Of a stretch of DNA of 64,000 nucleotides, positions 17,811 through 49,741 are shown one piece after another (position 1 is the stretch's first letter; each line of letters begins with the position of its first letter). The translations under genes were made by a program, and so were the position numbers. The notes beneath the pieces were generated by a model. It had not been told where the DNA came from and did no database searches. It saw only the letters and a program-made list of their open reading frames with translations. This DNA comes from Alphaproteobacteria bacterium (lineage in GTDB: Bacteria; Pseudomonadota; Alphaproteobacteria; Rs-D84). The DNA lies in NCBI GenBank assembly GCA_017472065.1, contig JAFURB010000010.1, positions 270-64,269 on the forward strand, in the 5' to 3' direction.

Positions 17811-17853
17811 ACAGCTAATAAATCTTTTATATAAAACCTTAAGGAAATATATT

Positions 17854-24957: not shown

Positions 24958-24989
24958 AAGGGCATTATGACAAATCAGATAAGAAAAAA

Positions 24990-25847: not shown

Positions 25848-25849
25848 TT

Positions 25850-26643: not shown

Positions 26644-26657
26644 ATACTGAATCTTTA

Positions 26658-35130: not shown

Positions 35131-35158
35131 AAAAATCCCCCGTTCGGGGGATTTTTTA
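35131..35158. terminator. Bidirectional intrinsic terminator at the left edge of the phage-derived block
   Basis: AAAAATCCCCC-GTTC-GGGGGATTTTTT. Confidence 0.75.
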
Positions 35159-35419
35159 TTTTATAACTGCACCCTTAATCAGGTTCAAGTCTTCTTTGAT
35201 ATCATCTATTTTTATTTGAATTTGGCCAATACCGGTTTCAAGAACTGTTGTGCGATTTTCCAACGCTGTTATGCGCGTGTCAACACGTTCCAATTCTGCG
35301 ACGGATGAATCCTGGCGCGCAACCCAGTAAATAACCCCCGCAATAAAGGCGATTAAAAACCAGCTGTCACGCAAAAAGTCTAGTATGCCGGTGGCACTGT
35401 TATATGGGGGCATGGTCAT
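35156..35419 (-). CDS. Phage-associated membrane/coiled-coil protein (87 aa)
   Basis: One TM (WFLIAFIAGVIYWV) followed by a heptad-like LERVDTRITALENRTTVLETGIGQIQIKIDDIKEDL. Confidence 0.45.
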   Translation of the reverse strand: MTMPPYNSATGILDFLRDSWFLIAFIAGVIYWVARQDSSVAELERVDTRITALENRTTVLETGIGQIQIKIDDIKEDLNLIKGAVIK

Positions 35420-35422
35420 TTT

Positions 35423-35614
35423 CTATTTCCCTTGGTTTGACAGTTTTTCAATATGGTGGACCAATGCGCGTTGCGATTCCAGCGCACGCAGTTCGTCATC
35501 ACTGGCGTTTGGTCCCAAATATCGTTCAATCGTCATTTTTCGCAGATGCGCCAACACCGCCCGGCCGGACGGTGTCGAAAATGTACGAATATAGTGTTGT
35601 TCAATATCGTTCAT
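35423..35614 (-). CDS. Small phage protein, Bbp19-like pattern
   Basis: FSTPSGRAVLAHLRK....LGP.....ELRALESQRALVHHIEKL resembles the F.s..G..VL..L...eG.R.v.l.I pattern of Bbp19-type proteins found next to portals. Recalled from memory only. Confidence 0.4.
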   Translation of the reverse strand: MNDIEQHYIRTFSTPSGRAVLAHLRKMTIERYLGPNASDDELRALESQRALVHHIEKLSNQGK

Positions 35615-35619
35615 TGGTT

Positions 35620-36849
35620 CTATACCCCCATCAAACTTTCAGATGCAACCATCTGGGCAATCGGGGCAATGTATTTTAATTCTGCATCACCATGCAATGT
35701 AATTGTGTCAATCACACCACGGCGTGATAATATTTGCAATCCGCGTTCGCACAATGGGCGTATAAATTCATGCAGCAATCGCCCATATGTCGCACCCAAT
35801 ATACGCATCATATCGCTGTTTCGGGCCATGATTTCTGTGGCGGTCATTTCTTTTTCACTTAATAGCCCCAACCGGTCTGCCAACAATGCGTGCCGAATCC
35901 GTTCGCGCAAATCTTTTAATATAATTTGCGATACATCAAAATTCGCGCCACTGGTCAATGGGGTCAGGCCCGATGATCCAACAGCCTTGGGGATAATTGC
36001 CCCGGGGGTCAGGTTTATGTTATTCAGGTTTATTACACCGTCATCGTCCGCCATCCAGATGCCCGATACCGCAATTGTCGCATTTTTCAAGACCAGTTCC
36101 ACAACCTTGTTCGCGGTTTTTATGTCTGGTAACGCACGCAAGACCGGTCCACGACCATATAATTCCCCCGATGCCAACGACCAGCGGAATATTAAGTATG
36201 GATTTGTTTCAAATGTGCCGGTGGCCACAATATTATTTTCAATATCACCACCAACATCCAGCCATGCTGTAAATTCAGTACCGACCAGACTTTGGACCAG
36301 TTTTATTGGTGTATCTGCATCTTGTTTAATCATATCGCGGATATTTGATGGTGGGGTCCATGTGGGATATTTTTCCATAACATCGCGTGCCGACATAGAT
36401 GTTGTATGAAATACTGCGTTTGGTAAAATCGCAATATCTGCCATCGGGATTGCTGTGAACGAAAATGCAGATGATGCACCAATTGGATTTTCAGCCATAA
36501 ACAAACACGCGGTCCCCAGAACAACTAAATCCATATAACACTGGTGAACAGTAGTATAGAAATTAGAATCGTTCAAATTCGCACGCAATGCCGCCGTTGC
36601 CGCACATGCATCGGGTGATGCATCACTTTCTGGCACCAGGGTCAGCCATAATGATTCTGGTGGGGTCAGTAATGTGTACAGCGATGCCGCCAGGTTATCA
36701 ACGGCATCGGTTGCGGTTGCATCATACAATGTCGCCAATTCATCATCGGCCGATGGCATTGTATATCTGCGCGCCGCGTCCCAACGATTTAGCCATGGGG
36801 CACGCATATCTAATGCACGTTTATATAACTGATAAAGGTTTGATTGCAT
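35620..36849 (-). CDS. Phage portal (head-to-tail connector) protein
   Basis: 409 aa directly downstream of the terminase. N-terminus MQSNLYQLYKRALDMRAPWLNRWDAARRY... is typical of podoviral connector proteins. Confidence 0.7.
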   Translation of the reverse strand: MQSNLYQLYKRALDMRAPWLNRWDAARRYTMPSADDELATLYDATATDAVDNLAASLYTLLTPPESLWLTLVPESDASPDACAATAALRANLNDSNFYTTVHQCYMDLVVLGTACLFMAENPIGASSAFSFTAIPMADIAILPNAVFHTTSMSARDVMEKYPTWTPPSNIRDMIKQDADTPIKLVQSLVGTEFTAWLDVGGDIENNIVATGTFETNPYLIFRWSLASGELYGRGPVLRALPDIKTANKVVELVLKNATIAVSGIWMADDDGVINLNNINLTPGAIIPKAVGSSGLTPLTSGANFDVSQIILKDLRERIRHALLADRLGLLSEKEMTATEIMARNSDMMRILGATYGRLLHEFIRPLCERGLQILSRRGVIDTITLHGDAELKYIAPIAQMVASESLMGV

Positions 36850-36879
36850 ATTTTTTCCTTTTTGTTGTTTTTGGGTTAG

Positions 36880-37746
36880 TTAGACTGAAAACTGTGTGTT
36901 TGCATAAAATGTCTGGGGGGCGCGGCCCATGGGGCGGATTACAATTGGCGTGGTGGAAATGGCGCCAGCCAATGCATCCAATCCATCGTCATGCCCCACC
37001 CCACCAATTGGTGACCACCCCAGCATTTCCGAAATTAGCGGTGTTTGCCGCACACGCATATGGGCATACAAATGCCCAGATGTCAGCAACGGTTCAATTG
37101 CATCCAGGATTCTGTCGGCCTTGTTACGACTGTTCGTGATTTTGTTGACATAGATATTTTCGCCATGATGTTTTGCCACATCAGACATGATTTCAGGCAA
37201 CGCATTGCCAATTCCGTTTGTTTCAATCGTTATACGGCGTATTGTGTAACGACGCATAAAATCCAGAACCATTTGACATTGGATGTTTAATGGGTGCGTT
37301 TCTGTATCTGGGACATGCATGTACGTGACATCATGGATGAACACATTGTGATTCTTGTCATCACGGTATATCAGGACACAGACACTGTCGTCTGATTTGT
37401 GACGGCCACTGGACGGGTCCCAATATATGGACGCCCCCGATATTTGATTCGAACCCAATCGCGCCGCGTGTATATCCAAGGTGTCTTCATAAAAGTGAAT
37501 TTGCCCCGGATCCAGCCGAATTCGTTCCGGTGGGACAAATTCCAACATCATTTGTGATGAAAAATGACGCGGTCCCACAATTTGCCGCATCTGATTTATC
37601 TTTTCAGTCGGGAAAAGTTCGGGCCACGCAGGCACACCATTGGCATCAAGTATCGGAATTTTCAATAATTTATATCCTGATAAAAAAGGCATTGAAAAAG
37701 CATTTTTTTCATATACCATTGGCGTTAAGGAAAAGGATTTTGACAT
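36880..37746 (-). pseudogene. Terminase large subunit, C-terminal (nuclease) fragment, T7 gp19-like
   Basis: ..SGYKLLKIPIL...WPELFP..., FSSQMMLEFVP and HDDGLDALAGAI align with T7 gp19 RGYTTIIWPALYP, FTLQFMLNP and HDDRLDALALGI. It has no ATPase domain of its own. The upstream part of track ORF 36880..37821 is antisense to dnaB. Confidence 0.75.
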
Positions 37747-39301
37747 GGATTTTACCCCCAAGACTTTGCCAACTAATTTAGAAGCAGAACAGGCAGTGTT
37801 GGCCGCCGTATTAATGAACAATCGTGCGTTGGAACGCGTGTCTGAATTCTTAAAAGCCGAACACTTTTATCACCCGGCACACCAGGGAATCTATAAACTG
37901 GCCGAACGCCAGTTTGCCGCCGGGATTCCGTTTGATATTATCACTGCAAAAAACTATCTGGACCAACAAGGGGTCTTGGAATCCGTTGGGGGCGTTGATT
38001 ACCTGACAAAATTGTCCGGCGCGGGTGCGACGGTTGTTAATGTCGAACAACATGGACGCATCGTTTATGAAAATGCCCAGCGGCGACAACTGATTAACCT
38101 GGCCCAGGATATTATGGATAATGCATTTGTCGAAGACTTGGACAATCCAGTTAATCGCCAAATCGAAATCGCAGAACAAAAGTTATTCGATATGGCAACA
38201 ACCGGCGATTCCGAACGCGATGTCATTTCAATTGCAACCGCGCTACAGGCCGCCCTGAGGGAAGCAGAAACCGCATACAAGGCCGACGGACAGTTATCTG
38301 GGTTGACGACAGGACTGACGGCGTTGGACAAATCAATTAGTGGTTTGCACCATTCTGATTTGATTATTATCGCGGGTCGTCCGGCGATGGGTAAAACAAC
38401 ACTGGCCATGAATATCGCATTTAATGCCGCAAATGCAATTCATTATGGGATGGCAAATAAAAACTATAAAGGCGTGGTGGTATTTTTCAGTTTGGAAATG
38501 TCACATTCACAATTGGCGGCACGTGTTCTGTCATCACAATCCAAGGTGCCGGCATCTGCGATGCGTGAAGGTAACCTGACGGATGAAGATATGCTGAAAA
38601 TGACACAATATGCCGATGCAATCAGCAAAATCCCGTTATGCATCGATGATACGCCGGGCATGTCGGTTCCAATGATGCGTACACGCGCAAGACGATTAGC
38701 ACGCAAATACGGTGGAATTGCGTTGATTGTGGTGGACTATCTGCAATTGATGACATCGCCGGGTGGCAAGCGCAGCGACAACCGCGTTCAAGAAATTTCC
38801 GAAATCACGCGTGGATTAAAAATGCTGGCCAAGGAATTGGATGTTCCGGTTATTGCACTGTCCCAGTTGTCGCGTAGTGTTGAACAGCGCGATGATAAAC
38901 GCCCCCAGTTGGCCGATCTGCGTGAATCTGGATCAATTGAACAAGACGCCGACATTGTTATGTTCACGTATCGTGAAGAATACTATCTGGCAAACAGAAA
39001 TCCATCCGAAAGAATTTCAAACACAACAAATTCATCCATGGTCGAATCATGGCAAAAACGATATGAACAATCCCGTGGCAAGGCCGATATTATCATTGGT
39101 AAAAACCGTCATGGTCGCCCTGAAACAGTACGCACTGCGTTCTTTGGCGATTACAGTTTGTTCGATAATTTACCGGATGAATTTGACACACGGGGCGAAA
39201 ATGTTTCCGCACAACCAAGTGCCAGCATACCACTGGACGGGTCTGAATTTGCACCAACACCAATTGACATTGATGCAATTCCAGACGATATGCCGTTGTG
39301 A
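37745..39301 (+). CDS. dnaB: Replicative DNA helicase DnaB (with acidic C-terminal tail)
   Basis: LPTNLEAEQAVLAAVL, Walker A GRPAMGKTT, LSQLSRSVEQR, RESGSIEQDADIV. Start set to ATG 37745 after AAGGAAAAGG. Confidence 0.92.
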   Translation: MDFTPKTLPTNLEAEQAVLAAVLMNNRALERVSEFLKAEHFYHPAHQGIYKLAERQFAAGIPFDIITAKNYLDQQGVLESVGGVDYLTKLSGAGATVVNVEQHGRIVYENAQRRQLINLAQDIMDNAFVEDLDNPVNRQIEIAEQKLFDMATTGDSERDVISIATALQAALREAETAYKADGQLSGLTTGLTALDKSISGLHHSDLIIIAGRPAMGKTTLAMNIAFNAANAIHYGMANKNYKGVVVFFSLEMSHSQLAARVLSSQSKVPASAMREGNLTDEDMLKMTQYADAISKIPLCIDDTPGMSVPMMRTRARRLARKYGGIALIVVDYLQLMTSPGGKRSDNRVQEISEITRGLKMLAKELDVPVIALSQLSRSVEQRDDKRPQLADLRESGSIEQDADIVMFTYREEYYLANRNPSERISNTTNSSMVESWQKRYEQSRGKADIIIGKNRHGRPETVRTAFFGDYSLFDNLPDEFDTRGENVSAQPSASIPLDGSEFAPTPIDIDAIPDDMPL

Positions 39302-39377
39302 TGAATTATTTTACTTGCCAAGCCCTTAAAAATTGACTATTATTTTGTCAAGATTATGTTTTTTAAGGAGTTGCACA

Positions 39378-40385
39378 ATGGCCCAAGAAGAAATCATTTT
39401 TCCAAATAACATCAGAAATATTCGTCTGAATAACGGGATGAAAATGACGGAACTGGCACGCCAGGCGGGTTTGTCTTTGTCGGCGGTGTCTAAAATCGAA
39501 AAGGGTGTTCGCCGTCTGAACCAGAAACAATTATTAAACATCTGTAACATCTTGGGGTGCAAATTATCCGATATTTTCATCAAAGAATCTGACGAGGTTG
39601 CAGAACAATGGCAATCCGAAATCAAACGCCGATTGAACGATAACGAAGACGGCGGTCTAAAGATTTTCGGCAGTGGTCTGCGCCGCATCCGCCAACAGGC
39701 CGGAAAAACAATCGCACGCGCGGCAAAAGATGCCGGTATGACATTGTCTGTGTATCATAAAATCGAAGTTGGCCAGCGCGAAATCTATGAAAATGAAATC
39801 GAACCATTGGCGCAATCGTTCGCAATGACCATTGAACAGATGTTTGATAAAATCGCAACAATGTACAAGACGGGCGAATTAAACAAACAAATTAACAAGG
39901 TCAAAGAACGTGTTAAATCTGTTCTGGAACCGGGCAACCCATTGTCCAGTATCGATATGGGCGGTGGTTTGTATGGCGCAAAACTGTATGACAGTGCGCG
40001 CAAAAAACTGGCACCGGTATTTGGTATGCCATCAGGCAAATCAATCGCGTTCAAAAAATCTGACAAAACGATGATTGTTGCACCAATGTCACTAGAAGGA
40101 CGCAGTGGTATTTACGCAGTAATGCCAAATTCAAAGCGTCTGGGCGGTTTTATCCCAGAAAAATCATATGTGTTTGCCGATGTTGATGCCACGGTTGCCC
40201 CAGGCGATTTGGCTGTATGCATTGATGCAGATTTTAATGCACTGGATTCTGAAACAACCGTCAGCGCCCAAATCGTCAGTGTTCGCCAAGATTCCAAGGG
40301 TAAAATATACGGCCAGGTTGCAAGCCCAGAAGAAAAAATCAACGCACAAACAATGCACAAAGTTGTTATGATTGTGATGGACTAA
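39378..40385 (+). CDS. Dual-HTH (two XRE-type domains) regulator with S24/LexA-like C-terminal fold
   Basis: Two HTH_XRE cores (MTELARQAGLSLSAVSKIEKG; IARAAKDAGMTLSVYHKIEVG) plus a ~130-aa C-terminal beta-rich domain (..VAPGDLAVCID..) reminiscent of S24 peptidases. Catalytic Ser/Lys not evident. ATG 39378 after AAGGAG. Confidence 0.6.
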   Translation: MAQEEIIFPNNIRNIRLNNGMKMTELARQAGLSLSAVSKIEKGVRRLNQKQLLNICNILGCKLSDIFIKESDEVAEQWQSEIKRRLNDNEDGGLKIFGSGLRRIRQQAGKTIARAAKDAGMTLSVYHKIEVGQREIYENEIEPLAQSFAMTIEQMFDKIATMYKTGELNKQINKVKERVKSVLEPGNPLSSIDMGGGLYGAKLYDSARKKLAPVFGMPSGKSIAFKKSDKTMIVAPMSLEGRSGIYAVMPNSKRLGGFIPEKSYVFADVDATVAPGDLAVCIDADFNALDSETTVSAQIVSVRQDSKGKIYGQVASPEEKINAQTMHKVVMIVMD

Positions 40386-40436
40386 GAATAAAACGTCCAC
40401 CACAATCATTTTCCACCCAGGAGAGAGAGCAAAACC

Positions 40437-41093
40437 ATGAAAGCACGAATAACCGCCACGGCACAAAAACTGTTGAACCTGTATCGCCAAGAACACGTTA
40501 TCATCGGTGGATGGGCGGCGATTAATCCTATATTTGTTGCCGAAGCAACCGAAGATGTAATCAAAGAATTACGCGAAATGCCAACTGGTAAAATGCTGGT
40601 CCAGCATATCGAAAACCTGAAAAGCGGTAAAACACCAATGAATTCAATTGAACCAGAACTGGTCCCGTATGGTGGGATGATGGGACAATCTGGATTGACT
40701 GATATCAGGTTGGTGGCCAAGGATTTATCTGAACTGCAATCCGCGATAAATGCATTTACACCCGACCAAAGCGGTCTGAACATGATTTCAGAATTGCCAT
40801 TGGTGCGCCGATTTGGCGAAGAGTGGCAAAATGCAATCCGTGATGCATTGGGACAGTATCCAGATATCCAGGCCAAGTGGGATGTTGTTATTAAAACATA
40901 TCGCGCATATCAATTATGGGACAGTGCCAGCCAGATTGTTAACGAACCAATTGATGAACGCACACGCGCCGAAATCCAGGCCGATATGCCAGAATATGAA
41001 ACATACCTGCCGATGTTTGGGGATGCGGGAAATGAATTGCTGACCAGATTGCGTACATTTATTAGTTCTGTTAAATCAGACGAAAACGCATAA
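40437..41093 (+). CDS. Hypothetical protein (218 aa)
   Basis: ORF with a GAGAGAG purine tract upstream. No family recognised. Its stop faces the stop of the terminase N-fragment across the palindrome CGCATAAAATTATGCG. Confidence 0.45.
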   Translation: MKARITATAQKLLNLYRQEHVIIGGWAAINPIFVAEATEDVIKELREMPTGKMLVQHIENLKSGKTPMNSIEPELVPYGGMMGQSGLTDIRLVAKDLSELQSAINAFTPDQSGLNMISELPLVRRFGEEWQNAIRDALGQYPDIQAKWDVVIKTYRAYQLWDSASQIVNEPIDERTRAEIQADMPEYETYLPMFGDAGNELLTRLRTFISSVKSDENA

Positions 41094-41095
41094 AA

Positions 41096-41731
41096 TTATG
41101 CGGTGCGATATATCGTATCCATCGTATGTGGTGTCCCAATATAAATCATTGCCCCATTTGGCGACAGAATAAAATCCAGTTCACGCAATCGTTCACGCAA
41201 ATTTTCCCGTTTTTGTGCGGTGTTTGATGTATTTGGAACCTCGACATCGTCACAGATTATTAAATCTGCACGCATACCAGTTATGTTGCCATGGATACCC
41301 TGGCAAATCACAGATGGTTCACGAATTCCAATTGGACGATTTATGGTTATTCGGTCGGATGCCCAATCGCGACGCGATGACGGAATCAGGTCCGCACACA
41401 ATGGATGATTTTCCAGAATATGACGAATATGCATAACCATACGCGATGCCAGTGTCGTATGCGCCGACAGAATCAATATTCGGGTCTGGGGGCATAACAG
41501 CAATGTACACGCAGCAAAAATTCCAACAACTGTTGATTTGCCAGAATGTCGAAATGCCATCAACAGTCCACGATGTGTATCATCACACAGAACCCCGACC
41601 AGAAATTCCATAATCTGGCGGTGATGGGTGGGCGTTTCATACCCCAGGACACGATTCCATGTATCCAGAAAGTTATAATAGGCCGTAATCATCACTGATG
41701 TTACCAGGGGTGGTGGATGTGATAAATCCAT
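41096..41731 (-). pseudogene. Terminase large subunit, N-terminal (ATPase) fragment, T7 gp19-like
   Basis: Walker A FRHSGKST, Walker B DLIICDDVE, ends ..IYIGTPHTMDTIYRTA* where T7 gp19 reads [20 protein letters not shown]. The continuation lies 3.3 kb away at 36880..37746. Confidence 0.8.
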
Positions 41732-42230
41732 AGTCGTTGATCAGATTTGGCCGCACATTATCCAACACCATTATCAAATTTCGATACAGCCCCAGCACAC
41801 CACCACCGGTCATTTTATCTTGGATAAGACTGTTTGTGTATTCCAAGAAATCAATCACATTTGTATGTGTGTTGCGCCACTGTTCAATATCTACATTTGG
41901 CGCATGCAGGTCTTTTAGGGCCTCAAGCAAGAAATTAAAGTCCGAATTCAGGTGTTCTGGGTCTATTTTTGCGGTCGGTTGGTAATCAACAACACGGTTT
42001 AGTGCAACCTGGCGATAGATATCAATACGACTGGCAGATGCGGGCGCATTGGCAAACACAACACGGCCACCGTCAAATGTGGTGTTTTCAATTACAGAAT
42101 ATTCATCTGTACCCAACACATGTTCATCGATTGCAACACGGATATCAGCCGCCTGGAAAAACGGAAAAGAAAATTCATATTCCGTTGTTGTGCCGTCTGA
42201 AATATAAGATACTTTATACATATTATTCAC
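41673..42230 (-). CDS. Tail-fibre N-terminal (tail-docking) domain only, T7 gp17-like
   Basis: YKVSYISDGTTTEYEFSFPFF...IRVAID...RIDIYRQVALNRVVDYQPTAKIDPEHLNSDFNFLLEALKDL follows the T7 gp17 N-domain pattern. It is 185 aa, so there is no distal receptor-binding part. Confidence 0.6.
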   Translation of the reverse strand: MNNMYKVSYISDGTTTEYEFSFPFFQAADIRVAIDEHVLGTDEYSVIENTTFDGGRVVFANAPASASRIDIYRQVALNRVVDYQPTAKIDPEHLNSDFNFLLEALKDLHAPNVDIEQWRNTHTNVIDFLEYTNSLIQDKMTGGGVLGLYRNLIMVLDNVRPNLINDYGFITSTTPGNISDDYGLL

Positions 42231-42242
42231 CCTGCCCTATAT

Positions 42243-42590
42243 TTATCCAACCAATTCGTCAAAACGACTTAACAATGTTTTTAACAGATTTGGTTTGTTA
42301 GCCTTAATCGATTTTAATTTCTTTTGATTTGCGGCGCGTTTTTCATCGTATGGTTTGGCGGTTTCTGATTTTATACGGGCCAATACCGCGCCCTGGGTCA
42401 AACCGCGCGATGACACACCCGATGCGCCGTATTTAGCGCGTTGGGCCGCCAATGTCTTTTTTATCAGGTTTGTCTTGGCTGACTCGTCCGCGGCCATTTG
42501 TGCCAAGATTTCTTGGCGGGCATTTTTTGCATTTCGTTTGTTTTCTTTATAGTCTAAGATTTCACTAACATCTGATACCAATTGTCCCAT
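42243..42590 (-). CDS. Small basic phage protein (115 aa)
   Basis: Lys/Arg/Ala-rich helical ORF between tubular B and the fibre stub. No family recognised. Confidence 0.4.
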   Translation of the reverse strand: MGQLVSDVSEILDYKENKRNAKNARQEILAQMAADESAKTNLIKKTLAAQRAKYGASGVSSRGLTQGAVLARIKSETAKPYDEKRAANQKKLKSIKANKPNLLKTLLSRFDELVG

Positions 42591-42630
42591 TATATTTCCC
42601 CTTTGTTGAATTCAATTAATTTGTTGTTCA

Positions 42631-44352
42631 TTAAATGTTATACCAACCAGATACACAGACCGATAAAATCGTGGCTGGGTACGGCTGGTTGCCATGAATT
42701 GTCCAATATGGCGCAACACAGTTATGCGATGTCCCCAAAACATTGACATGTACATCGCCTGAAAATCCGGGCGCATCATCTGAATATATTTCATTTGCCA
42801 TATTGATACGCATCCCATTGATGTATATGGATTTTGTATCCAATATGCGGGCGGACACCTTTCTTATTCGCAGGCGCGATGCATTGTGTGCCGATGCACG
42901 CATTGGCAGTGATGATGCACGGAACGCGAAATCATATTTATCTGTGTCACGCATCGCGTCGGCCGAAAATTTTTCCAGATTATATGTGTCGCCACGATTG
43001 GTGACAACATATGTAATGCCATTAACAACAACCACAGATTTGAACGCACCATATGTTTTGTATGCACCCCAGGCACTTATCCCCAATGCTGAATTTTGAT
43101 TCAAGACGGCCATATTTCCGTCTGCCATAACGATGTACAATCGATGCAAAGAATCATTATATGCAATGTCAATTGGCAATGTCATCAAATGTTTGGAAAA
43201 AGAGCATAAATCCAGTGCGCTGTAGTTTTCACCCAATTCATCCAGTGTTAATTCGCGTATGTCGCGCAGATTCTTGGATATGAATACGGTGCTGTCTTCT
43301 ATCTTTTGTGGGGCAAGATATCGTGATGCACAACTGCCCACGGATGTGTGTTGTTTTATATCAACCACAGATGGTGTCAGGGGCTTGCTGGATATCGCCC
43401 ATTCGCCAACAGATGTTAAAATTTGCAGATTATCACTGCTGACGACGGTGCAAATTTGCTGGCGCTGTTGTGAAAGCAGGGTTATAAAAATTGCTTCGTC
43501 ATCAAGTCCGGTTCCAACATCAAAGTTTTTGTGATTGCCGACCTTGGACATCCAAACACCGCCCGGATATGAACGCGAACCACCAAATACCAATCTGTCT
43601 TGGTGAAAAGTAATACTGATTGGCCAGCCACGGGCCGGACTGAACGCAGATTCAAACCAATCGGCGATTGGGGCGCTGGGTAATGTACAGGCATCGTTGA
43701 TGTATGCGATGACCTCGGTCGGGCTGATGTATTCTTCGATAAGCCATTGATGATTTAACAATACAAATCGTGTTCCAACATATTGCGTGGTCCAGAAATC
43801 TGAACTGGTTGTGAATTTGGCATAATTATTGCCACGATCGCTGGATGACACAGAAATCTTGATATCATTTGTATCTTCGTATCGCATGAACGGCATATTA
43901 ACCGACATGTCTGTGTCATTTCGGGCAAACATAAAGTTCGACAAACTAAAACCATCTGATGTTTTTTCAAGCACCTGGGGGCAATGGTCTGGATGAACAA
44001 ATATCATTGTGCCAAAACGCTGGGCGTATTGCAGTTTTGATAAATCATCCGCCGACCATGGCGATACCAGGTCTGAAACAAACACGTTGTCTGCATAAAT
44101 CAATATATGACCCGATGTCATTACAAGGATATAGTTTTCTTGTTCAGACACCGAAAAACCAACCAATCGCGCATCACCAGTTAATGAGGCAATATGTGCC
44201 AGACCACATCGGCGCGACAATCCACCACCTGGCAAAACATCCATGTTTTCCAAGCACGACAATCCATTTATATCATCGCGCGCATAGAATTCTGGTGATA
44301 CTTCGCCCGATGCAAATGAGTTCTGTGTTTTTATAAAATTTGCCATTATCAT
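42631..44352 (-). CDS. Tail tubular protein B (T7 gp12-like)
   Basis: N-terminus ..FASGEVSPEFYARDDINGLSCLENMDVLPGGGLSRRCGL matches the F.aGE.SP...gR.D...Y......N......G....RpG opening of gp12-type nozzle proteins. Position after gp11-like gene. Confidence 0.72.
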   Translation of the reverse strand: MIMANFIKTQNSFASGEVSPEFYARDDINGLSCLENMDVLPGGGLSRRCGLAHIASLTGDARLVGFSVSEQENYILVMTSGHILIYADNVFVSDLVSPWSADDLSKLQYAQRFGTMIFVHPDHCPQVLEKTSDGFSLSNFMFARNDTDMSVNMPFMRYEDTNDIKISVSSSDRGNNYAKFTTSSDFWTTQYVGTRFVLLNHQWLIEEYISPTEVIAYINDACTLPSAPIADWFESAFSPARGWPISITFHQDRLVFGGSRSYPGGVWMSKVGNHKNFDVGTGLDDEAIFITLLSQQRQQICTVVSSDNLQILTSVGEWAISSKPLTPSVVDIKQHTSVGSCASRYLAPQKIEDSTVFISKNLRDIRELTLDELGENYSALDLCSFSKHLMTLPIDIAYNDSLHRLYIVMADGNMAVLNQNSALGISAWGAYKTYGAFKSVVVVNGITYVVTNRGDTYNLEKFSADAMRDTDKYDFAFRASSLPMRASAHNASRLRIRKVSARILDTKSIYINGMRINMANEIYSDDAPGFSGDVHVNVLGTSHNCVAPYWTIHGNQPYPATILSVCVSGWYNI

Positions 44353-44358
44353 CCCCTA

Positions 44359-44877
44359 TTAAAACCGAGAACTAATTAGTGAAAAGTTTTCTATGTGATT
44401 ACCGCCACCGATGGAACTGTCAATGAATTTGGCATTTTGCAGTTCTGTTTCGTACAGTGCGGCCAACATTCTGAATACTGTTTGATCGCCTGATAACGGG
44501 ACACAAAATTCCAATGCCAGTTTGGTCGCAACCAATGATGAAAAATAACTGGGGTATTGTTCGGTGCCAACACGCACACATGCCGTGATTGTTATTGAAT
44601 CAGATGCGGCAATAATATTGTTGCCAATAATTTGACCACCTGATTTCAAAACACGCAAAACATCACTGGGGATTGTGAAATTCCCATCGGCATTTACATT
44701 TAAGGTTATTTGACGCGTGGCAAAACGCCATGGATGTGATGCAATCAGGGCATCTGTTATCGGGTCAAATAATGTACGCGCCAATTGTGATGATACACAA
44801 TCATCACTTAAAGACTGAATTGGTTCTTCGCCCAGTTTAAGCAATGCCATTGAACATAAATCTATTTTTGTAAGCAT
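44359..44877 (-). CDS. Tail tubular protein A / adaptor (T7 gp11-like)
   Basis: MLTKIDLCSMALLKLGEEPIQSLSDD...LFDPITDALIASHPWRFA, a typical gp11-type N-terminus. 172 aa. Confidence 0.72.
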   Translation of the reverse strand: MLTKIDLCSMALLKLGEEPIQSLSDDCVSSQLARTLFDPITDALIASHPWRFATRQITLNVNADGNFTIPSDVLRVLKSGGQIIGNNIIAASDSITITACVRVGTEQYPSYFSSLVATKLALEFCVPLSGDQTVFRMLAALYETELQNAKFIDSSIGGGNHIENFSLISSRF

Positions 44878-44897
44878 ACTGTCCCCATTTTTGTTTG

Positions 44898-44932
44898 ATA
44901 AAAATTATCGGTGGCGCATTATCACGCCACCG
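44898..44932 (-). terminator. Intrinsic terminator after the capsid/small-gene unit
   Basis: Minus strand CGGTGGCG-N8-CGCCACCG followed by ATAATTTTTAT, positionally like T7 T-phi after gene 10. Confidence 0.55.
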
Positions 44933-44961
44933 TTATGTATATGTAACAAGAATCAATAAAA

Positions 44962-45195
44962 CTATGCCAATGCAGCCGTGGTAACGTTGCTGGTCGTGAT
45001 ATTGATTTTCTTTATCGCAGTGTTATCTGATGCGTTGATGATTACAACATCACCAATATTCATTAATGTTTTTACATCGTTAAAATATCCAGTGGCTGTA
45101 ATTGTTGCCAATGTTTCTGCGCCAGATGCATAGTGCCACAATGTAAATCCATTTGCATATGCAATCACAGATAAATTTTTATTTTGAAATGCCAT
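44962..45195 (-). CDS. Small phage protein (77 aa)
   Basis: Start trimmed to ATG 45195 (MAFQNKNLSV...) after AAAGGA. No family recognised. Confidence 0.4.
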   Translation of the reverse strand: MAFQNKNLSVIAYANGFTLWHYASGAETLATITATGYFNDVKTLMNIGDVVIINASDNTAIKKINITTSNVTTAALA

Positions 45196-45226
45196 AATAC
45201 TTATCCTTTGGTTGAAATTGTGACAC

Positions 45227-46054
45227 TTATGCAGTTGTCGCATCCGCACATTTGACGCGTACAATACCATCGTTATCAATCAAGACGGCACCCTGGGACA
45301 TACTGTTGCTGATAAAGTGCGCGGCACGTTCACCATGCCATGAAATGTCTGTCTTGACTTCTTGGCCACAGGCGTGTCCAACGCTGGACGCGTGATAGAT
45401 AAAGCAGTCACGATTTGTATCCGTAGATGGTAAACCGTTGTGCAGAACCCATGTGATGCCCAGCCATTTCTTGGCTTCGAAACCACTGACCAATGGGGTG
45501 GAATCACCAACATATTCAGACGACACGAATTCGTCCATCGACAATAATTCGTTCCACTGGTGTACACCAATTACGGCAAAACGACGACCATCATCTGGAA
45601 CATCGTTTGTGTTCAAAACTTCGACCGCAGACAAAATCAAATCTTTGGTCAGGCCGGTGGAATAATCACCAACAGACAGTGTTGATGCGTTCATTGCATC
45701 GATGATTAATTCATCTGTCTTGCGCCCCAGTGCATATGCACCCGCAGACGCAACAACACGGCGTTCATCAATGTTTACCTTTAATTCATCCAATGCATCA
45801 ACCCAATCACCTGCATAATAATCTGTTAACATACATTCAACAGGTTCATGATTCAGATTCATTACTGGAACAATACCGTGGCGTGATTTTGTGCTGGCGG
45901 TGCCACGACCAACCTTTTGAAATGTCGTGGATGCACCAACGACACCTGATTTACTGCGAACGGTTGAACGCAGTTTTGTACCCATCTGTTGATAGGCCAA
46001 ATGAACATCGGCTTCGAATTGTTTTACGAAAACCTGATCAATTGAAACGGACAT
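45227..46054 (-). CDS. Major capsid protein (T7 gp10-like, HK97 fold inferred)
   Basis: VKQFEADVHLAYQQMGTKLRSTVRSKSGVVGASTTFQKVGRGTA parallels T7 gp10 KVFGGEVLTAFARTSVTTSRHMVRSISSGKSAQFPVLGRTQA. Position after the scaffold gene. Confidence 0.72.
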   Translation of the reverse strand: MSVSIDQVFVKQFEADVHLAYQQMGTKLRSTVRSKSGVVGASTTFQKVGRGTASTKSRHGIVPVMNLNHEPVECMLTDYYAGDWVDALDELKVNIDERRVVASAGAYALGRKTDELIIDAMNASTLSVGDYSTGLTKDLILSAVEVLNTNDVPDDGRRFAVIGVHQWNELLSMDEFVSSEYVGDSTPLVSGFEAKKWLGITWVLHNGLPSTDTNRDCFIYHASSVGHACGQEVKTDISWHGERAAHFISNSMSQGAVLIDNDGIVRVKCADATTA

Positions 46055-46123
46055 ATTTTTTCCTTTTTATGTTTGGTTAAATAAAAAATACACTTTTGTG
46101 TAAATATTTTTGTATGCCGGTTA

Positions 46124-46139
46124 TGCAAAAATTGCGCCA
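46124..46139 (-). promoter_or_regulatory. Candidate sigma54 (-24/-12) promoter upstream of the capsid gene
   Basis: The minus strand reads TGGCGCAATTTTTGCA, matching TGGCAC-N5-TTGCA spacing exactly, ~70 nt upstream of ATG 46054. Confidence 0.3.
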
Positions 46140-46180
46140 AGAATACAAAATAGATGCGGGGTCGTGGCGACTTGTCCGCA

Positions 46181-46253
46181 TAAAAAAATCAGTCAGACCT
46201 GGGATACATCTGACTGATATTTTCAAAAACAAAACCCGGACAATTGTCCGGGT
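46181..46253 (-). terminator. Two tandem intrinsic terminators after the Lys/Ala-rich gene
   Basis: Minus strand: ACCCGGAC-AATT-GTCCGGGT+TTTGTTTTT, then ATCAGTCAGA-N11-TCTGACTGAT+TTTTTTT. Confidence 0.65.
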
Positions 46254-46275
46254 AAATTAATAATATGAACTTATA

Positions 46276-46755
46276 TTATTTCTTTTTCACGCATTTTTTC
46301 GCGCATGCTTTTTTTGCAACTGGTTTGGCAGCAACTTTTTTCGCAGGCGCTTTTTTCGCAACTGGTTTTTTAACTGCTACTTTTTTTGCAACTACTTTTT
46401 TTGCAACAGGTTTTGCAGCAACTTTTTTTGCAGGTGCTTTCTTTGCAACAGGTTTTTTAACTGCTACTTTCTTTGCAACTGGTTTGGCAGCAACTTTTTT
46501 CGCAGGTGCTTTCTTTGCAACTGGTTTTGCCGCTGGTTTCTTTGCAACTACTTTTTTTGCAGCAGGTTTTGCAGCAACTTTTTTCGCAGGTGCTTTTTTC
46601 GCAACTGGTTTTGCGGCTGGTTTCTTTGCAACTACTTTTTTCGCAGCAGGTTTTGCAGCAACTTTTTTCGCAGGTGCTTTTTTTGCAACTGGCTTTGCCG
46701 CTGGTTTTGCAGCTGCTTTCTTTGCAGCAGATTTTTTGAACAGGCTGAATGCCAT
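46276..46755 (-). CDS. Lys/Ala/Pro-rich histone H1-like (AKP-repeat) basic protein
   Basis: 159 aa, five tandem units each beginning [15 protein letters not shown], strong RBS GAAGGAGAG, own terminators. Other frames and the opposite strand across the repeat are artefacts. Confidence 0.7.
46300..46740. repeat. Coding tandem repeat (units of ~72-87 nt)
   Basis: Repeated ..GCAGCAACTTTTTTCGCAGGTGCTTT(T/C)TT(C/T)GCAACTGGTTTTGC.. blocks. Two units are near-identical at an 84-nt period. Confidence 0.8.
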
Positions 46756-46860
46756 CTTTCTCTCCTTCGCTATTTTTTGGATAGAACAAATCCGTTTTGT
46801 TCTTACTTTATATTTTATCTGAATATCAAAAAATAGTAAAGTAGAAAGTGAATTTTTTTC

Positions 46861-47517
46861 TTATGAATATAATTTTTTGAAACCGTTTTCTATTTTTCTG
46901 ATGTATTCTGCATCACCATCACGCCAGTATTTTGGATCGCGCATCATGCGACGCAAATCAGAATCTGATAAATTTTTTGTTTCACTTTTATCGGTTTCAA
47001 CATTTGGTTCCATCGATTGCATCATTCGATAAATGCCTTGGATTCCCTGGGGCGTAGAACACAGTTCGTCAAATGCATCGCTGGGTAAAAACTTTTTTCC
47101 AAATGCATCAATTGCGCGCAATGCGTCGTTCATTTTTTCTGTGCCACCAAAAAAATTCTTTAGTTCATTGATTGCATTTTGTTCATTTTGTGTTGAATAC
47201 AAATCAGATATAACAGGTGCTAAAAATTCATTTGCGATGTCATATATTTTTTCAACCTGGGATGATGTCAATCCAATATCATGAAATTTTCTGCGTAAAT
47301 TTTCATCATCAAACAATTCATTTGTTGGATATTGTTCGGATGTTTCCGGCACACCAATCGCACGATTAAAACGCGCACGCGTTTTTTCATCGCACCCATC
47401 ACTTGGTACCGTTATCATTGTACCAATTTTTCGTTCTAATTCAGAATATGATTTCATTAATGCATCTGTGTTTAATGTACCATCTTCGTTCAAAAATTTT
47501 TCTGGGATTTTGTCCAT
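46861..47517 (-). CDS. Capsid assembly scaffolding protein (podovirus type)
   Basis: MDKIPEKFLNEDGTLNTDALMKSYSELERKIG opening, typical of podoviral scaffold proteins. Acidic and helical. Position upstream of the capsid gene. Confidence 0.55.
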   Translation of the reverse strand: MDKIPEKFLNEDGTLNTDALMKSYSELERKIGTMITVPSDGCDEKTRARFNRAIGVPETSEQYPTNELFDDENLRRKFHDIGLTSSQVEKIYDIANEFLAPVISDLYSTQNEQNAINELKNFFGGTEKMNDALRAIDAFGKKFLPSDAFDELCSTPQGIQGIYRMMQSMEPNVETDKSETKNLSDSDLRRMMRDPKYWRDGDAEYIRKIENGFKKLYS

Positions 47518-47522
47518 CTTTA

Positions 47523-47711
47523 TTATCCTTTGTTTTCGTTTGACTTACGCAGAAAGTAAATTCCACCAAGTGTAAAAATACTTTGTAACATTACAAATAT
47601 GTCGCTGTCCCCGACCAGATACGCACCAATCGCAGACAATATGCCAACCGCCGAAACTATATAAGTTCGACGACCGGCTAAAAATCCACCACTAATAAAT
47701 TTATTCATCAT
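47523..47711 (-). CDS. Holin-like small membrane protein (62 aa)
   Basis: Two hydrophobic segments and a charged C-terminus (RKSNENKG), directly downstream of the hydrolase gene. Confidence 0.45.
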   Translation of the reverse strand: MMNKFISGGFLAGRRTYIVSAVGILSAIGAYLVGDSDIFVMLQSIFTLGGIYFLRKSNENKG

Positions 47712-47719
47712 ATTTCCAT

Positions 47720-48130
47720 TTATAAATAAAACAGCAATTCATCAACATCCAGAATATATCCACGCGCACGCGCCCATTCAGGCATTATGCAACCATGATG
47801 AAAACACGTTGCACCACGACACATGTCTGGCAAACCACCACATAACATTCGTCCGACCACGCGCAGACACATTTGAAATGCACGACTGGTGGGGGCGACC
47901 GATAACAATTCATGACGATTTGATGATGGTTTCAGTGATTCAAACATATCGGTATCAGATATTATTTGTGCGATACTTTTTCCGGTGGCACGCGATGCAT
48001 TATTAATCATGGATACCAGTGCCTCGACCGCGGTCAGTGATGATGCAGATGTTTCTGCATAAACAACACGCGCAATTGTGTACATCAACTTTCTGGATTC
48101 ATCTGGATTTTTTATCAGTCGTAAATTCAT
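47720..48130 (-). CDS. SleB-type cell wall hydrolase (Hydrolase_2 family)
   Basis: IARVVYAETSASSLTAVEALVSMINNA......IAQIISDTDMFESL follows the SleB/CwlJ domain pattern common in alphaproteobacterial phages and GTAs. Confidence 0.7.
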   Translation of the reverse strand: MNLRLIKNPDESRKLMYTIARVVYAETSASSLTAVEALVSMINNASRATGKSIAQIISDTDMFESLKPSSNRHELLSVAPTSRAFQMCLRVVGRMLCGGLPDMCRGATCFHHGCIMPEWARARGYILDVDELLFYL

Positions 48131-48164
48131 TTCTGAAAATCCCCCCGTTTGATTTTATGACAAT

Positions 48165-48289
48165 AAAAAACCGCACATATAATGTGCGGACATAAAAAAA
48201 CAAATAAAAAAAATCCCCAACAAATTGTTGTGGATATATTATCTGCTCTTGATGCATGGTATTATACCACAAAAAAACATCTAAGTCAA
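48165..48289 (-). promoter_or_regulatory. Consensus-like sigma70 promoter followed by two tandem intrinsic terminators ahead of the lysis/structural genes
   Basis: Minus strand: TTGACT(48289-84)-17-TGGTATAAT(-10 at 48266-61); ATCCACAAC-AATTT-GTTGGGGAT+T8 (48235-48204); CCGCACAT-TAT-ATGTGCGG+T6 (48189-48165); then GGGGGGA RBS and ATG 48130. Confidence 0.55.
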
Positions 48290-48321
48290 GACAATAATAA
48301 AAAACACTGGTTTTCGGGGGA

Positions 48322-49005
48322 TTACAGCATTGTTATTTCATCGCCATACACCAACAAATATCGTGTATCACGACGCAAAATTAATGCACCATTTTCGTTT
48401 ATACCAATTAATTCAGCAGGCGCACCATGGTACAAAACATCACGATTAAGATGTTCAACCAACTGCATCCAGCGCGCGCGAACAACAGAAAAATCACATC
48501 GGCGCCATTTATCTAAATTACGTATCAGACGCGCCATTAAATCATTTGCGTTCACATCCGTATAATTGGCCAGGCGTGTCGTCTTGTATTCTGCGACCGT
48601 TGGATTTGTGTTTATGTTGATTCCAATTCCAACAATTACATACGGACCAGAATATTCGATTAATATACCCGCCACCTTTTTATTATCAATCAAGATATCG
48701 TTTGGCCATTTAATTGTTGGATTTATGCCATATGAAATCAGTGTTTCTGCAACCGCAACCGCCGTCGCATAAGACAGGCGGCCATCACGCGTGTCACAGC
48801 CATAAATAAAACTGACATACAAATTCCCATGATGCGAAACCCATTTGCGACGATAGCGACCACGACCGGCACTTTGCGCCAATGCCACAACCGCCGTGCG
48901 GTTTGTTGCGCGGCCATCTGCAATCAGTTCATGGGCCATGTCCTGGGTACTGGGGATTTTATCAAATGAAAAAACCTTATATCCAGCCAAGTTTATATAC
49001 CCCAT
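48322..49005 (-). CDS. birA: Biotin-[acetyl-CoA-carboxylase] ligase (no N-terminal HTH)
   Basis: GRGRYRRKWVSHHGNLYVSF matches the GRGRxGRxWxSxxGxL biotin ligase motif. 227 aa. Confidence 0.88.
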   Translation of the reverse strand: MGYINLAGYKVFSFDKIPSTQDMAHELIADGRATNRTAVVALAQSAGRGRYRRKWVSHHGNLYVSFIYGCDTRDGRLSYATAVAVAETLISYGINPTIKWPNDILIDNKKVAGILIEYSGPYVIVGIGININTNPTVAEYKTTRLANYTDVNANDLMARLIRNLDKWRRCDFSVVRARWMQLVEHLNRDVLYHGAPAELIGINENGALILRRDTRYLLVYGDEITML

Positions 49006-49396
49006 CTAAATTAATAATAAATTCGCGCCCAAACAGACGACGCAACTGATAAATTGCAGTATCAACAACATGGGTCGATGTGTTGATTGCGTACCCAAGC
49101 GCACTTTTTAACTCACCCGATGTCATACCGCCGCTTTTATACAATGCAACCACAACACGTCCCTGGATATATGGCAATGACACCGAACGGCCAAATATTT
49201 TATTCAAAATCCGCGAATCATCCCCCGCCCCCAGTAAAATTGCCTTTAATTCCAGTGGCGAGGCAGGCAACCTTATATCCATATCATCCAGATTCAAATC
49301 TGTTGGTGTTACCGCATCCAATACAGTGGCATTCAAATCCGTTAAAATTCCACGCCACACAATATCTGATGTAAAAATGCGTATTCCAGTCAGCAT
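48977..49396 (-). CDS. Winged-helix (OmpR/PhoB effector-domain-like) DNA-binding protein
   Basis: C-terminus MTSGELKSALGYAINTSTHVVDTAIYQLRRLFGREFIINLDGVYKL resembles Trans_reg_C. Start trimmed to ATG 49396. Overlaps birA by 29 nt. Confidence 0.45.
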   Translation of the reverse strand: MLTGIRIFTSDIVWRGILTDLNATVLDAVTPTDLNLDDMDIRLPASPLELKAILLGAGDDSRILNKIFGRSVSLPYIQGRVVVALYKSGGMTSGELKSALGYAINTSTHVVDTAIYQLRRLFGREFIINLDGVYKLGWI

Positions 49397-49495
49397 GTAT
49401 TCATATATACCCCAAAGTCGGTCAATTGTCCAACAAAAAACCACGCATTAATTGCGCGTGGTTTTTGGGGTGTCGAAACCGTACAAAAAATGTGC

Positions 49496-49741
49496 TTATT
49501 CGCGTCCTTGGTCTGGGGATTCAATGAATTTAGTAAAATCTTGAATCCTGGACCCGGTCGACGACAAAATCTTTGAAATACTGTTTGTCGACGGCCATCT
49601 GGGCTGCCCTTCTTTGGACCAACGCTTACTTTTATTAAAAGTAGTTGGGTCCAGACCACTGCACTTAGCCAAGCCCGAACAAGACATACCATGTTCGGTC
49701 GCAAAGCGTTCGATTGCCCGCCATACATCTTCATGGGTCAT
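49496..49741 (-). CDS. Phage-repressor-type HTH protein (CI/S24 N-terminal domain only)
   Basis: MTHEDVWRAIERFATEHGMSCSGLAKCSGLDPTTFNKSKRWSKEGQPRWPSTNSISKIL matches the N-domain of alphaproteobacterial S24-type repressors. No peptidase domain. ATG 49741 after AAGGAGAG. Confidence 0.65.
   Translation of the reverse strand: MTHEDVWRAIERFATEHGMSCSGLAKCSGLDPTTFNKSKRWSKEGQPRWPSTNSISKILSSTGSRIQDFTKFIESPDQGRE

Follow-up and report, generated by a model that had tools for sequence, protein, structure and literature searches.

Few gene transfer agents (GTAs) are known that were domesticated independently of one another. RcGTA is of siphovirus/HK97 type and has a P22-like large terminase (TerL) (PMC7947584), and the GTA cluster of Caulobacter, controlled by GafYZ, is reported to need transcriptional activation as well as anti-termination (10.1101/2023.11.12.565669 / PMC11150451). 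FpGTA of Faecalibacterium prausnitzii has been described as the first podovirus-like GTA-like element, and its particles of ~40 nm, which carry 8.4-8.9 kb of DNA, were shown experimentally (PMC12946183, 2026). Here, we describe a phage-derived block of ~14.6 kb that lies on the minus strand at positions 35156-49777 of a 64,000-nt stretch of contig JAFURB010000010.1; this whole stretch is called the window, and all coordinates refer to it. The host lineage is Candidatus Enterousia (order Rs-D84, Alphaproteobacteria), an uncultured group with genomes of ~0.75-1.0 Mb, normal coding density and a very limited metabolism (PMC12306168). The gene content and evolutionary pattern of the block point to a particle system of the Rs-D84 Alphaproteobacteria that derives from a podovirus, was domesticated long ago and is inherited vertically; it is probably a GTA-like viriform. 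An earlier note, made from these letters alone, had called a podovirus-derived counterpart of RcGTA unusual, and this is a fair view, FpGTA being the sole precedent found. All the evidence is comparative, and the taxonomy of the metagenome-assembled genomes (MAGs) on which it draws is coarse.

All core components of a short-tailed virion are encoded in the block, together with a terminase and lysis proteins, and it carries no genes for replication or integration. Such a selected set, in which procapsid, packaging and nuclease, tail and lysis functions are present and replication and integration are missing, is the anatomy of a gene transfer agent. On the minus strand, the order of transcription is hth93-p139-birA-leader-endolysin-p62-scaffold-H1-like-capsid-p77-gp11-gp12-p115-fibre-TerL_N; p218, xre350 and dnaB then lie on the plus strand, and past dnaB the minus strand continues with TerL_C-portal-Bbp19-p87 and a bidirectional terminator. 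Families were assigned with Pfam, PHROGs and NCBIfam profiles, and the genes are the following:

49496-49777, minus: hth93, the helix-turn-helix (HTH) of a truncated CI/LexA-type repressor; probable ATG at 49741, weak match to Pfam HTH_26.
48977-49396, minus: p139, 139 aa (listed as a 155-aa open reading frame, ORF), just upstream of the late leader; the start MLxG(I/V)R is kept in the orthologues listed.
48322-49005, minus: birA, cellular biotin-protein ligase, which passes TIGR00121.
47720-48130, minus: endolysin of SleB/Hydrolase_2 type, the first late gene (phrog_938; the homologues of relatives match PF07486).
47523-47711, minus: p62, 62 aa, a holin candidate by position only.
46861-47517, minus: T7-type scaffolding protein (PF05396, E 2e-9).
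46276-46755, minus: histone-H1/Hc2-like protein rich in K, A and P (PF07382, NF038053), with its own terminator at 46234-46253.
45227-46054, minus: major capsid protein (PF19821, E 2e-71).
44962-45195, minus: p77, the conserved part of a 105-aa ORF, a small head-associated protein (phrog_18004; homologues in L081, L082 and L087).
44359-44877, minus: gp11-like tail adaptor, or tubular protein A (phrog_394, E 2e-28; weak PF17212).
42631-44352, minus: gp12-like tail nozzle, or tubular protein B (phrog_376, E 1e-83).
42243-42590, minus: p115, 115 aa, candidate gp14-like internal virion/ejection protein (weak).
41673-42230, minus: short fibre/adaptor of 185 aa with the T7 gp17 N-terminal domain (PF03906, phrog_1640).
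41096-41731, minus: TerL_N, the terminase ATPase core (PF03237, Terminase_6N); probable conserved start at 41692.
40437-41093, plus: p218, a conserved all-helical protein.
39378-40385, plus: xre350, a CI-like regulator with a C-terminal domain of ~150 aa (HTH_3 twice, PHROG repressor families).
37745-39301, plus: dnaB, cellular replicative helicase (NF006606 equivalog, 606 bits against a cutoff of 540; below the phage_DnaB cutoff).
36880-37746, minus: TerL_C, the terminase lid subdomain and RNaseH-like nuclease (PF22530, PF17289; T7 RNaseH-like).
35620-36849, minus: portal, the T7-type head-to-tail connector (PF12236, E 7e-82).
35423-35614, minus: Bbp19-family small protein of 63 aa, 48% identical to a PF25181-positive protein of L085.
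35156-35419, minus: p87, 87 aa, an XhlA-like membrane and coiled-coil protein (weak phrog_1193, PF10779).

The phage genes that the earlier note had read on this strand are all present where it placed them, and the dnaB and birA genes that it placed inside the block are cellular ones by their NCBIfam equivalog and TIGR00121 matches. A Bbp19-like protein exists as claimed, but it is the 63-aa product of 35423-35614, whose homologue in L088 carries PF25181, the 87-aa ORF at 35156-35419 being XhlA-like. The reported lack of integrase, RNA or DNA polymerase and primase was borne out among the ORFs of the 64-kb window scanned with Pfam, of which the large ones are housekeeping genes (FtsH, TilS, BamA, RseP, UppS, signal peptidase, a ComM/YifB-type ATPase) or unmatched. 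As for the gp14-, gp15- and gp16-type proteins that were said to be missing, the block has no large gp15/gp16-like ORF, but p115 provides a weak gp14-like candidate.

The two ORFs that encode the large terminase are 3.3 kb apart, and this separation is kept in every locus that covers the region. TerL_N ends in ...IGTPHTMDTIYRTA and a stop codon, 7-8 residues past ATPase motif III and after TIYRTA. TerL_C has its own ATG, an SD-like (Shine-Dalgarno-like) GGGGG and a sequence that begins MSKSF...FLSGYKLLKIPILD...WPELF (MSKSF...FLSGYKLLKIP), and intact relatives read without interruption across the same junction (IGTPHTRQTIYDTTSEGFLRDFHILKIPIL). When concatenated, the halves match an intact T7-like TerL in one high-scoring segment pair over residues 15-513, and taken separately they are 53% (TerL_N) and 38% (TerL_C) identical to residues 6-197 and 202-461 of one intact TerL. 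The TerL_N motifs are invariant (Walker A AFRHSGKST, Walker B LIICDDVE, motif III IGTPHT), as are the nuclease motifs WDP, ETNGIG and DDGLD among the split forms. An AlphaFold model of the fused halves has a mean predicted local distance difference test score (pLDDT) of 87, with two segments of low confidence, namely the junction (residues 200-215) and the C-terminal tail; Foldseek ranks first the terminase of PhiV-1, a T7-like phage, matched over the full length (E 8e-28), followed by those of T4, T7, HK97, Sf6 and D6E. The joined halves are therefore modelled as a complete TerL fold. The break falls in the loop that connects ATPase motif III to the lid subdomain, with the RecA-like core on one side and lid and nuclease on the other. 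A TerL_C search of 50%-identity representatives returned many divergent proteins that have their start at this linker too (272-292 aa, 34-48% identity), as well as intact forms of 460-530 aa.

The insert is tightly fitted at both ends. The ATGs of dnaB (37745) and of TerL_C (37746, opposite strand) overlap in the tetranucleotide CATG (37744-37747) in all but one of the species examined, so that the ribosome-binding site of each gene lies inside the coding sequence of the other, and the stop codons of p218 and TerL_N are separated by 2 nt. A split intein, an intron and programmed DNA excision were considered and rejected, given that there are no flanking direct repeats and no recombinase and that TerL_C has its own ATG; an intein is further excluded because TerL_N stops 7-8 residues after motif III, which leaves no room for it. 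The halves are consequently best read as two polypeptides. Neither a phage element in Rs-D84/Enterousia nor a split large terminase is described in the searchable literature, and a terminase conserved in two pieces, with essential cell-cycle genes nested between them, appears unprecedented in the literature searched.

The conservation of this arrangement was assessed with one genome per GTDB species. A capsid search returned 267 loci, and the comparisons use the best 80 of these, taken with ±10 kb around; they are labelled mostly Candidatus Enterousia or 'Alphaproteobacteria bacterium' and come from ruminant, horse, bird and other guts. Loci were mapped with tblastn, and counts of gene order are valid as far as each contig extends. 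Gene order and orientation are identical in 80/80 species-level loci, including the split of the terminase around the reversed dnaB-xre-p218 segment, the fibre being optional, and the DNA outside either end of the block varies among species (the lpxI cluster, for example, occurs in three arrangements). The reading frames are intact in nearly all loci: capsid 79/79, gp11 78/79, gp12 76/77, TerL_N 74/75, TerL_C 69/70, endolysin 66/66 and portal 63/64. Likewise, p62 is kept in 66 loci, xre350 in 73 and p218 in 73-75, and birA is at the same position in 65. The Bbp19-family protein was found in 118 loci. The ratios of nonsynonymous to synonymous substitution (dN/dS, Nei-Gojobori NG86, each against the window), which are rough and upper-bound-like since dS is saturated (>1), are 0.058 for the capsid, 0.073 for the portal, 0.10 for TerL_N, 0.12 for gp12 and the fibre, 0.14 for TerL_C and gp11, 0.15 for the scaffold and p218, 0.24 for the endolysin, 0.08 for p62 and xre350 and 0.04 for hth93, compared with 0.065 for dnaB, 0.067 for lpxI and 0.15 for birA. 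The capsid is the most conserved protein of the block, with a mean pairwise distance of 0.11 vs 0.155 for DnaB, and where dnaB and birA are more distant between species, so are portal, TerL_C, capsid and scaffold (Spearman 0.6-0.84).

In a DnaB-anchored search of metagenome contigs, 4/4 close DnaB genes (>=75% identity) were nested in a split terminase, and DnaBs of <=50% identity were not. The capsid has 4049 homologues, the best 120 of which are 79-91% identical and lie on contigs of up to >1 Mb from alphaproteobacterial MAGs. Altogether, fixed order, purifying selection and co-divergence with host genes fit domestication, and not a decaying or mobile prophage. The earlier note had favoured domestication over a live prophage and had proposed synteny and dN/dS across relatives as the check; conserved position, intact ORFs, dN/dS of 0.06-0.24 (the range of dnaB, lpxI and birA) and co-divergence with dnaB and birA speak for its proposal. 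As a separate observation, one gut metagenome (run X1) holds the block at 99% of sampled words, with no contig >=95% alike over 35501-37504 (portal, TerL_C), which suggests strain-level divergence or recombination restricted to that segment.

Two related architectures place the Enterousia block in a broader context. In the first, called type B (L087 and L090; termite-gut and other MAGs), the order is scaffold-H1-like-capsid-...-fibre-TerL_N-ftsZ-portal-TerL_C-lysin, and the capsid is ~65% identical to that of Enterousia. TerL is cut in the type-B loci L085, L087 and L090 at the same place as in Enterousia, and L085 has further unassigned genes between the halves. A cell-cycle gene thus stands between the TerL halves in each architecture, ftsZ in type B or dnaB in Enterousia. 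The identical cut site implies either that the split is older than the divergence of these lineages or that the site is uniquely permissive; neither half has since been lost. The second architecture, seen in other gut Alphaproteobacteria through IMG/VR and the protein database, has an unsplit TerL, with 2722 homologues, the best 120 of which are 53-100% identical, measure ~444-503 aa and come from alphaproteobacterial MAG contigs of up to 647 kb. In three genomes, the unsplit cassette spans ~10 kb and starts with a divergent S24 repressor of CI/LexA type and two small proteins, followed by portal-Bbp19-scaffold-capsid-gp11-gp12, gp14-like-94 aa-TerL, a Hydrolase_2 endolysin, an XhlA-like protein, a 59-aa protein and an HTH protein. 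The flanking host genes differ in each of the three genomes. No integrase or replication genes were seen in the unsplit cassettes or in the flanks of those unsplit and type-B relatives whose gene calls were read. Some unsplit members have a full-length fibre and PF11351, GTA_holin_3TM, a 'GTA holin' (L165), and the 94-aa gene before TerL may be a small terminase.

The Enterousia block is made of the families of the unsplit cassette with three sub-blocks (lysis, scaffold-to-TerL, portal-Bbp19) reordered, and the ~10 kb cassette would be the ancestral-type form. A tRNA (uracil-5)-methyltransferase gene adjoins the cassette in L156 (10239-11258) and L171 (13042-14067) and stands directly upstream of hth93 in many Enterousia species, the window copy being at 52513-53436 (plus strand); this neighbourhood hints at one shared ancient chromosomal location. 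In IMG/VR, ~60 fragments of the block are listed as viral, with the same chromosomal architecture, dnaB included. A further relative is L081, a 5084-bp record from human faeces in Mexico (MT838907.1) that bears the name 'Bacteriophage sp.'; it carries the unsplit-type series portal-scaffold-capsid-p77-gp11-gp12 with a capsid 62% identical to that of the window. Should its source have been a preparation of virus-like particles, the record would give a first hint that such cassettes reach particles.

Comparison with the unsplit cassettes also bears on the smaller proteins of the block. hth93 shares 45% identity with residues 2-74 of their S24 repressor and lacks the S24 peptidase domain of this ancestral repressor. 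p115 aligns with the protein that follows gp12 in unsplit cassettes (hhalign 94%, E 1.4e-7), where such proteins have weak matches to PF24072 T7_gp14 and phrog_418. The p77 gene follows the capsid gene in all relatives, one of them a pelagiphage. phrog_1193, weakly matched by p87, also matches the protein after the endolysin in the unsplit cassette, and p87 is a probable lysis accessory. p139 probably acts as a winged-helix DNA-binding regulator, its matches in a PDB profile search, to OmpR/MarR winged-helix domains, being all sub-threshold; its homology to the early proteins p119 or p128 of the unsplit cassette was rejected (hhalign probability <1%). p62 matches no family in Pfam, PHROGs or NCBIfam; the same holds for p218, for which a single-sequence AF2 model has a pLDDT of 70 and a best Foldseek PDB E-value of 2.3. 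The H1-like ORF lies between scaffold and capsid in 68/68 Enterousia loci and in the type-B loci L087 (672-977) and L090 (479-727), and is absent from the unsplit cassette; its product could be a nucleoid protein of the cell or a DNA-condensing partner of the particle. In metatranscriptomes, contigs of this gene have 10-40 times the depth of its neighbours, and low-complexity cross-mapping is possible.

The transcription signals of the block are as follows:

48261-48289, minus: late promoter TTGACT-17-TATAAT with an extended -10 TG, 11/12 consensus positions.
48163-48235, minus: late leader with two tandem intrinsic terminators and T-runs (hairpin 1 at ~48215-48233, hairpin 2 at 48171-48189).
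44909-44932, minus: strong terminator/attenuator after capsid-p77, a 10-pair hairpin with 7 GC pairs and a T-run.
35131-35156, both strands: bidirectional terminator that closes the block, an 11-pair hairpin with T-runs on both strands.

All aligned species have, between birA and the endolysin, a promoter, a short conserved leader, two hairpins with T-runs and a Shine-Dalgarno sequence. The -35 and -10 hexamers are largely kept across 40 aligned species, and the hairpin sequences vary yet stay paired (RNAalifold: 13 pairs, 11 with compensatory changes). The same layout of promoter plus terminators precedes the late genes of the unsplit L156 and L171-L173. Such an architecture suggests a late operon under antitermination control. 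The terminator at 44909-44932 stands at the position of T7 T-phi, for in T7, too, the capsid gene is followed by a terminator. No intergenic space is left in front of TerL_C, so that its transcription must start inside dnaB or arrive by antisense read-through. No CtrA boxes (TTAA-N7-TTAA) occur in the block, the 64 kb having 1 match vs 3.4 expected by chance, and an Rfam scan returned tRNAs only.

These features can be assembled into a model of how the system might work. The near-consensus sigma-70 promoter would drive the late genes, with transcripts halting at the tandem leader terminators unless an antitermination factor acts. An antiterminated RNA polymerase would read from the endolysin through TerL_N and may go on, antisense via p218-xre-dnaB, into TerL_C-portal-Bbp19-p87, ending at 35131-35156. 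TerL_N and TerL_C would associate non-covalently into a working packaging motor and, there being no recognisable small terminase, packaging would begin non-specifically on host DNA. Producer cells would then lyse via the SleB-type hydrolase, p62 and the XhlA-like protein. With the gp14-like protein alone and an optional fibre, delivery, if any, must differ from that of T7. Because the gp14-like protein is the sole remaining ejection protein, one can speculate that the particle releases its DNA into the periplasm and that recombination or competence functions of the host then take it up, as described for RcGTA.

A bolder version of this model is possible, and we advance it tentatively: the split terminase and the nested cell-cycle gene could be a functional design, and the elements a new, ancient, podovirus-derived GTA family that extends across several gut alphaproteobacterial orders, in which the Rs-D84 ATPase and nuclease have come apart as two subunits and particles are made as part of terminal differentiation. 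Late transcription antisense through dnaB (Enterousia) or ftsZ (termite-gut) would then couple production to an arrest of replication or division, and the interleaved essential genes would lock the element into a shrinking genome.

Several points weigh against a GTA-like system. The literature searched offers no precedent for a functional two-piece TerL, neither a small terminase nor gp15/gp16 ejection proteins were identified within the 64-kb window, and no Q-like or GafZ-like protein was identified that could serve as antitermination factor. Read-through antisense across p218-xre-dnaB is pure inference. The fibre, ~182 aa where present, is truly absent in ~20/77 species, which bears on the route of adsorption, and the capsid, if it is still as large as in its phage relatives (T=7), would have room for the entire 14.6 kb block, which sets it apart from the classical small GTAs. 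The saturation of dS that limits the selection estimates belongs here as well. Metatranscriptome contigs, which count in favour of the system, span the block evenly and at low depth, like its neighbours, but these data are unstranded and may include DNA, and no VIRAL-labelled sequencing runs holding the host region were found.

The main rival to a GTA-like viriform, though a rather unlikely one, is that particles are made and have no role in gene transfer, serving as PBSX-like killer or defective particles, in antagonism, in interaction with partner cells or in the release of DNA. A PBSX-like particle is a reading that sequence does not separate from a GTA. The S24 (LexA/CI-type) repressor beside the cassette of unsplit relatives recalls SOS-induced defective phages, but the S24 domain has been lost in Enterousia. 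Missing gp15/gp16 and a dispensable fibre fit poor delivery of DNA, and the authors of FpGTA raise the same caveat for their element (PMC12946183). On the other hand, the strong conservation of terminase, portal and nuclease motifs indicates that DNA packaging itself is under selection. Moreover, a podovirus tail has no contractile killing apparatus.

It is much less plausible that the genes are kept for a function other than a complete DNA-filled virion, either as capsid compartments or with one part functional and the rest held in place by interleaved essential genes. The essential genes inside (dnaB and birA; ftsZ in relatives) could indeed shield the block from large deletions, but hitchhiking cannot explain why, across saturated synonymous divergence, the structural, packaging and lysis genes have without exception kept intact ORFs and dN/dS of 0.06-0.15, and the head, tail and lysis genes retained are most of a virion set. 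A still-mobile element, i.e., a temperate phage or a helper-dependent satellite, is more improbable again. It would account for the ~60 fragments listed as viral and for the 5 kb human-faecal relative deposited as 'Bacteriophage sp.', but the IMG/VR entries share the chromosomal architecture, cellular dnaB and birA are nested in the block, and gene order and neighbourhood are stable and co-diverge with host genes. There are no flanking direct repeats around the block and no integrase or replication module among the window ORFs scanned; of the parts of a satellite, no integrase, replication initiator/primase or att repeats were found in the block, which encodes its own TerL and tail. A contig joint from 48217 to 35131 (runs X2, X3) resembled the junction of a circular or excised form and was judged a mapping or assembly artefact because both of its ends lie in similar terminator hairpins (AAAAATCCCC...GGGGATTTTT). 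Finally, the simple decay for which the earlier note took the split terminase to argue is hardly credible and is refuted as regards the split itself: a terminase in two pieces, a lack of replication genes and a stub fibre suggest a prophage remnant at first sight, but the split is clean, ancient and kept in all loci examined, both halves are under purifying selection with intact catalytic motifs, the split is older than the separation of lineages that share only 65% capsid identity, and the host genomes are <1 Mb with high coding density (PMC12306168).

Outside the block, the earlier note had pointed to a fibre-type gene in the 17854 region and a MuF-GH108 gene at 24990, and both are real:

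17851-18432, plus: Mtd_N-type tail protein (PF18454, E 3.5e-10; phrog_9648).
24990-25958, minus: MuF(weak)-GH108-PG_binding_3 protein (PF05838, E 5e-16; PF09374; phrog_315; PF04233 below cutoff).

In three Enterousia loci from IMG/VR (L096, L098, L106), a homologue of the Mtd_N protein is encoded ~0.8 kb past p87, so the gene may once have stood next to the block and its product may serve the system in receptor binding. A 623-aa ORF without family match (15844-17715, plus) precedes its gene. The MuF-GH108 gene and an adjacent unmatched ORF of 177 aa (24460-25958, minus) lie in a stretch of low GC content (36-39%) beside tRNA-His and tRNA-Ala (26566-26733); the locus could be a remnant of another phage or encode a head-borne muralytic component of the particle. 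A Mg-chelatase-like ATPase of the ComM/YifB family is encoded at 8781-10304 (plus) and was counted as support on the recipient side, ComM being one competence-type protein required in recipients of RcGTA DNA. Type IV secretion genes may be common neighbours of the element: a VirB8-like protein (32454-33143, plus) and a T2SSE/VirB11-type ATPase (54484-55443, plus) are encoded on either side of the block, and TrbL and TrbC genes lie near the unsplit relatives L171 and L173. The segment 57000-64000 has a GC content of 33-36% vs ~43% elsewhere, encodes a GNAT acetyltransferase, an ABC-F-type ATPase, an MFS transporter and unmatched ORFs, and may be an acquired island.

If the GTA-like reading holds, it would add a large and ancient gut-alphaproteobacterial family, with >=267 species-level capsid loci and ~2700 unsplit TerL relatives. 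Genomes that have shrunk to <1 Mb and yet keep ~11 kb of phage genes imply a strong benefit; recombination could, for instance, offset the mutational decay of host-dependent bacteria. A large terminase that is naturally made of two subunits, with the ATPase core apart from lid and nuclease, would offer a ready system for studies of packaging-motor assembly, and the repeated nesting of dnaB or ftsZ in a viral gene is unusual and may bear on how domesticated elements are regulated and stabilised.

Described systems share single aspects of this locus. The sigK skin element of B. subtilis, the Anabaena nifD element and terminases split by inteins or introns also have one ancestral gene in two separated coding parts, but the block has no recombinase, direct repeats or intein/intron features, and its insert holds an essential gene on the opposite strand. 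In the case of lambda Q and pR'-tR', the likeness lies in a strong, constitutive-looking promoter, intrinsic terminators within ~110 nt and a long late operon, read here from sequence architecture only; the difference from both Q and GafYZ is that no counterpart of Q or GafZ has been recognised here. PBSX of Bacillus subtilis is likewise a particle system of phage origin that sits in the chromosome and does not replicate; it has an Xre/CI-type repressor and lysis genes and packages host DNA. It is myovirus-like, with a contractile tail, belongs to Firmicutes and is not homologous to the block, the tail genes of which are of podovirus type; as to a PBSX-type control, an S24 repressor is present in the unsplit relatives and is truncated to its HTH in the block.

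Closer by descent are the T7-like podoviruses, whose portal, scaffold, gp11, gp12, gp14-like, fibre N-domain and TerL families match those of the block and whose order portal-scaffold-capsid-gp11-gp12-...-TerL is shared by the unsplit relatives; among capsids of bona fide phages, the Pelagibacter podophage EXVC031P has the nearest, at 46% identity. Unlike them, the block has no RNA or DNA polymerase, primase, integrase or gp15/gp16, and its gene blocks are rearranged, its terminase is in two ORFs and cellular genes are interleaved. RcGTA resembles it in having a phage-derived head, tail, terminase and lysis set free of replication and integration genes, with accessory genes that may be dispersed, in vertical inheritance under purifying selection over a large alphaproteobacterial clade, and in the GTA_holin_3TM family (PF11351) of the unsplit relative L165. 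There is no structural homology between the two, since the block is built of T7-type podovirus families (PF12236, PF05396, PF03906, PF22530, phrog_376, phrog_394), and the Enterousia block, a putative GTA, differs further in its split terminase, nested essential genes and lack of CtrA boxes. FpGTA, compared by description only, belongs to a Firmicute and has a single TerL (with a possible small terminase, TerS), with no split or nested essential genes reported; it is, however, near-ubiquitous in its own genus, as the block is in Enterousia, and its size is close to that of the unsplit ~10 kb cassette.

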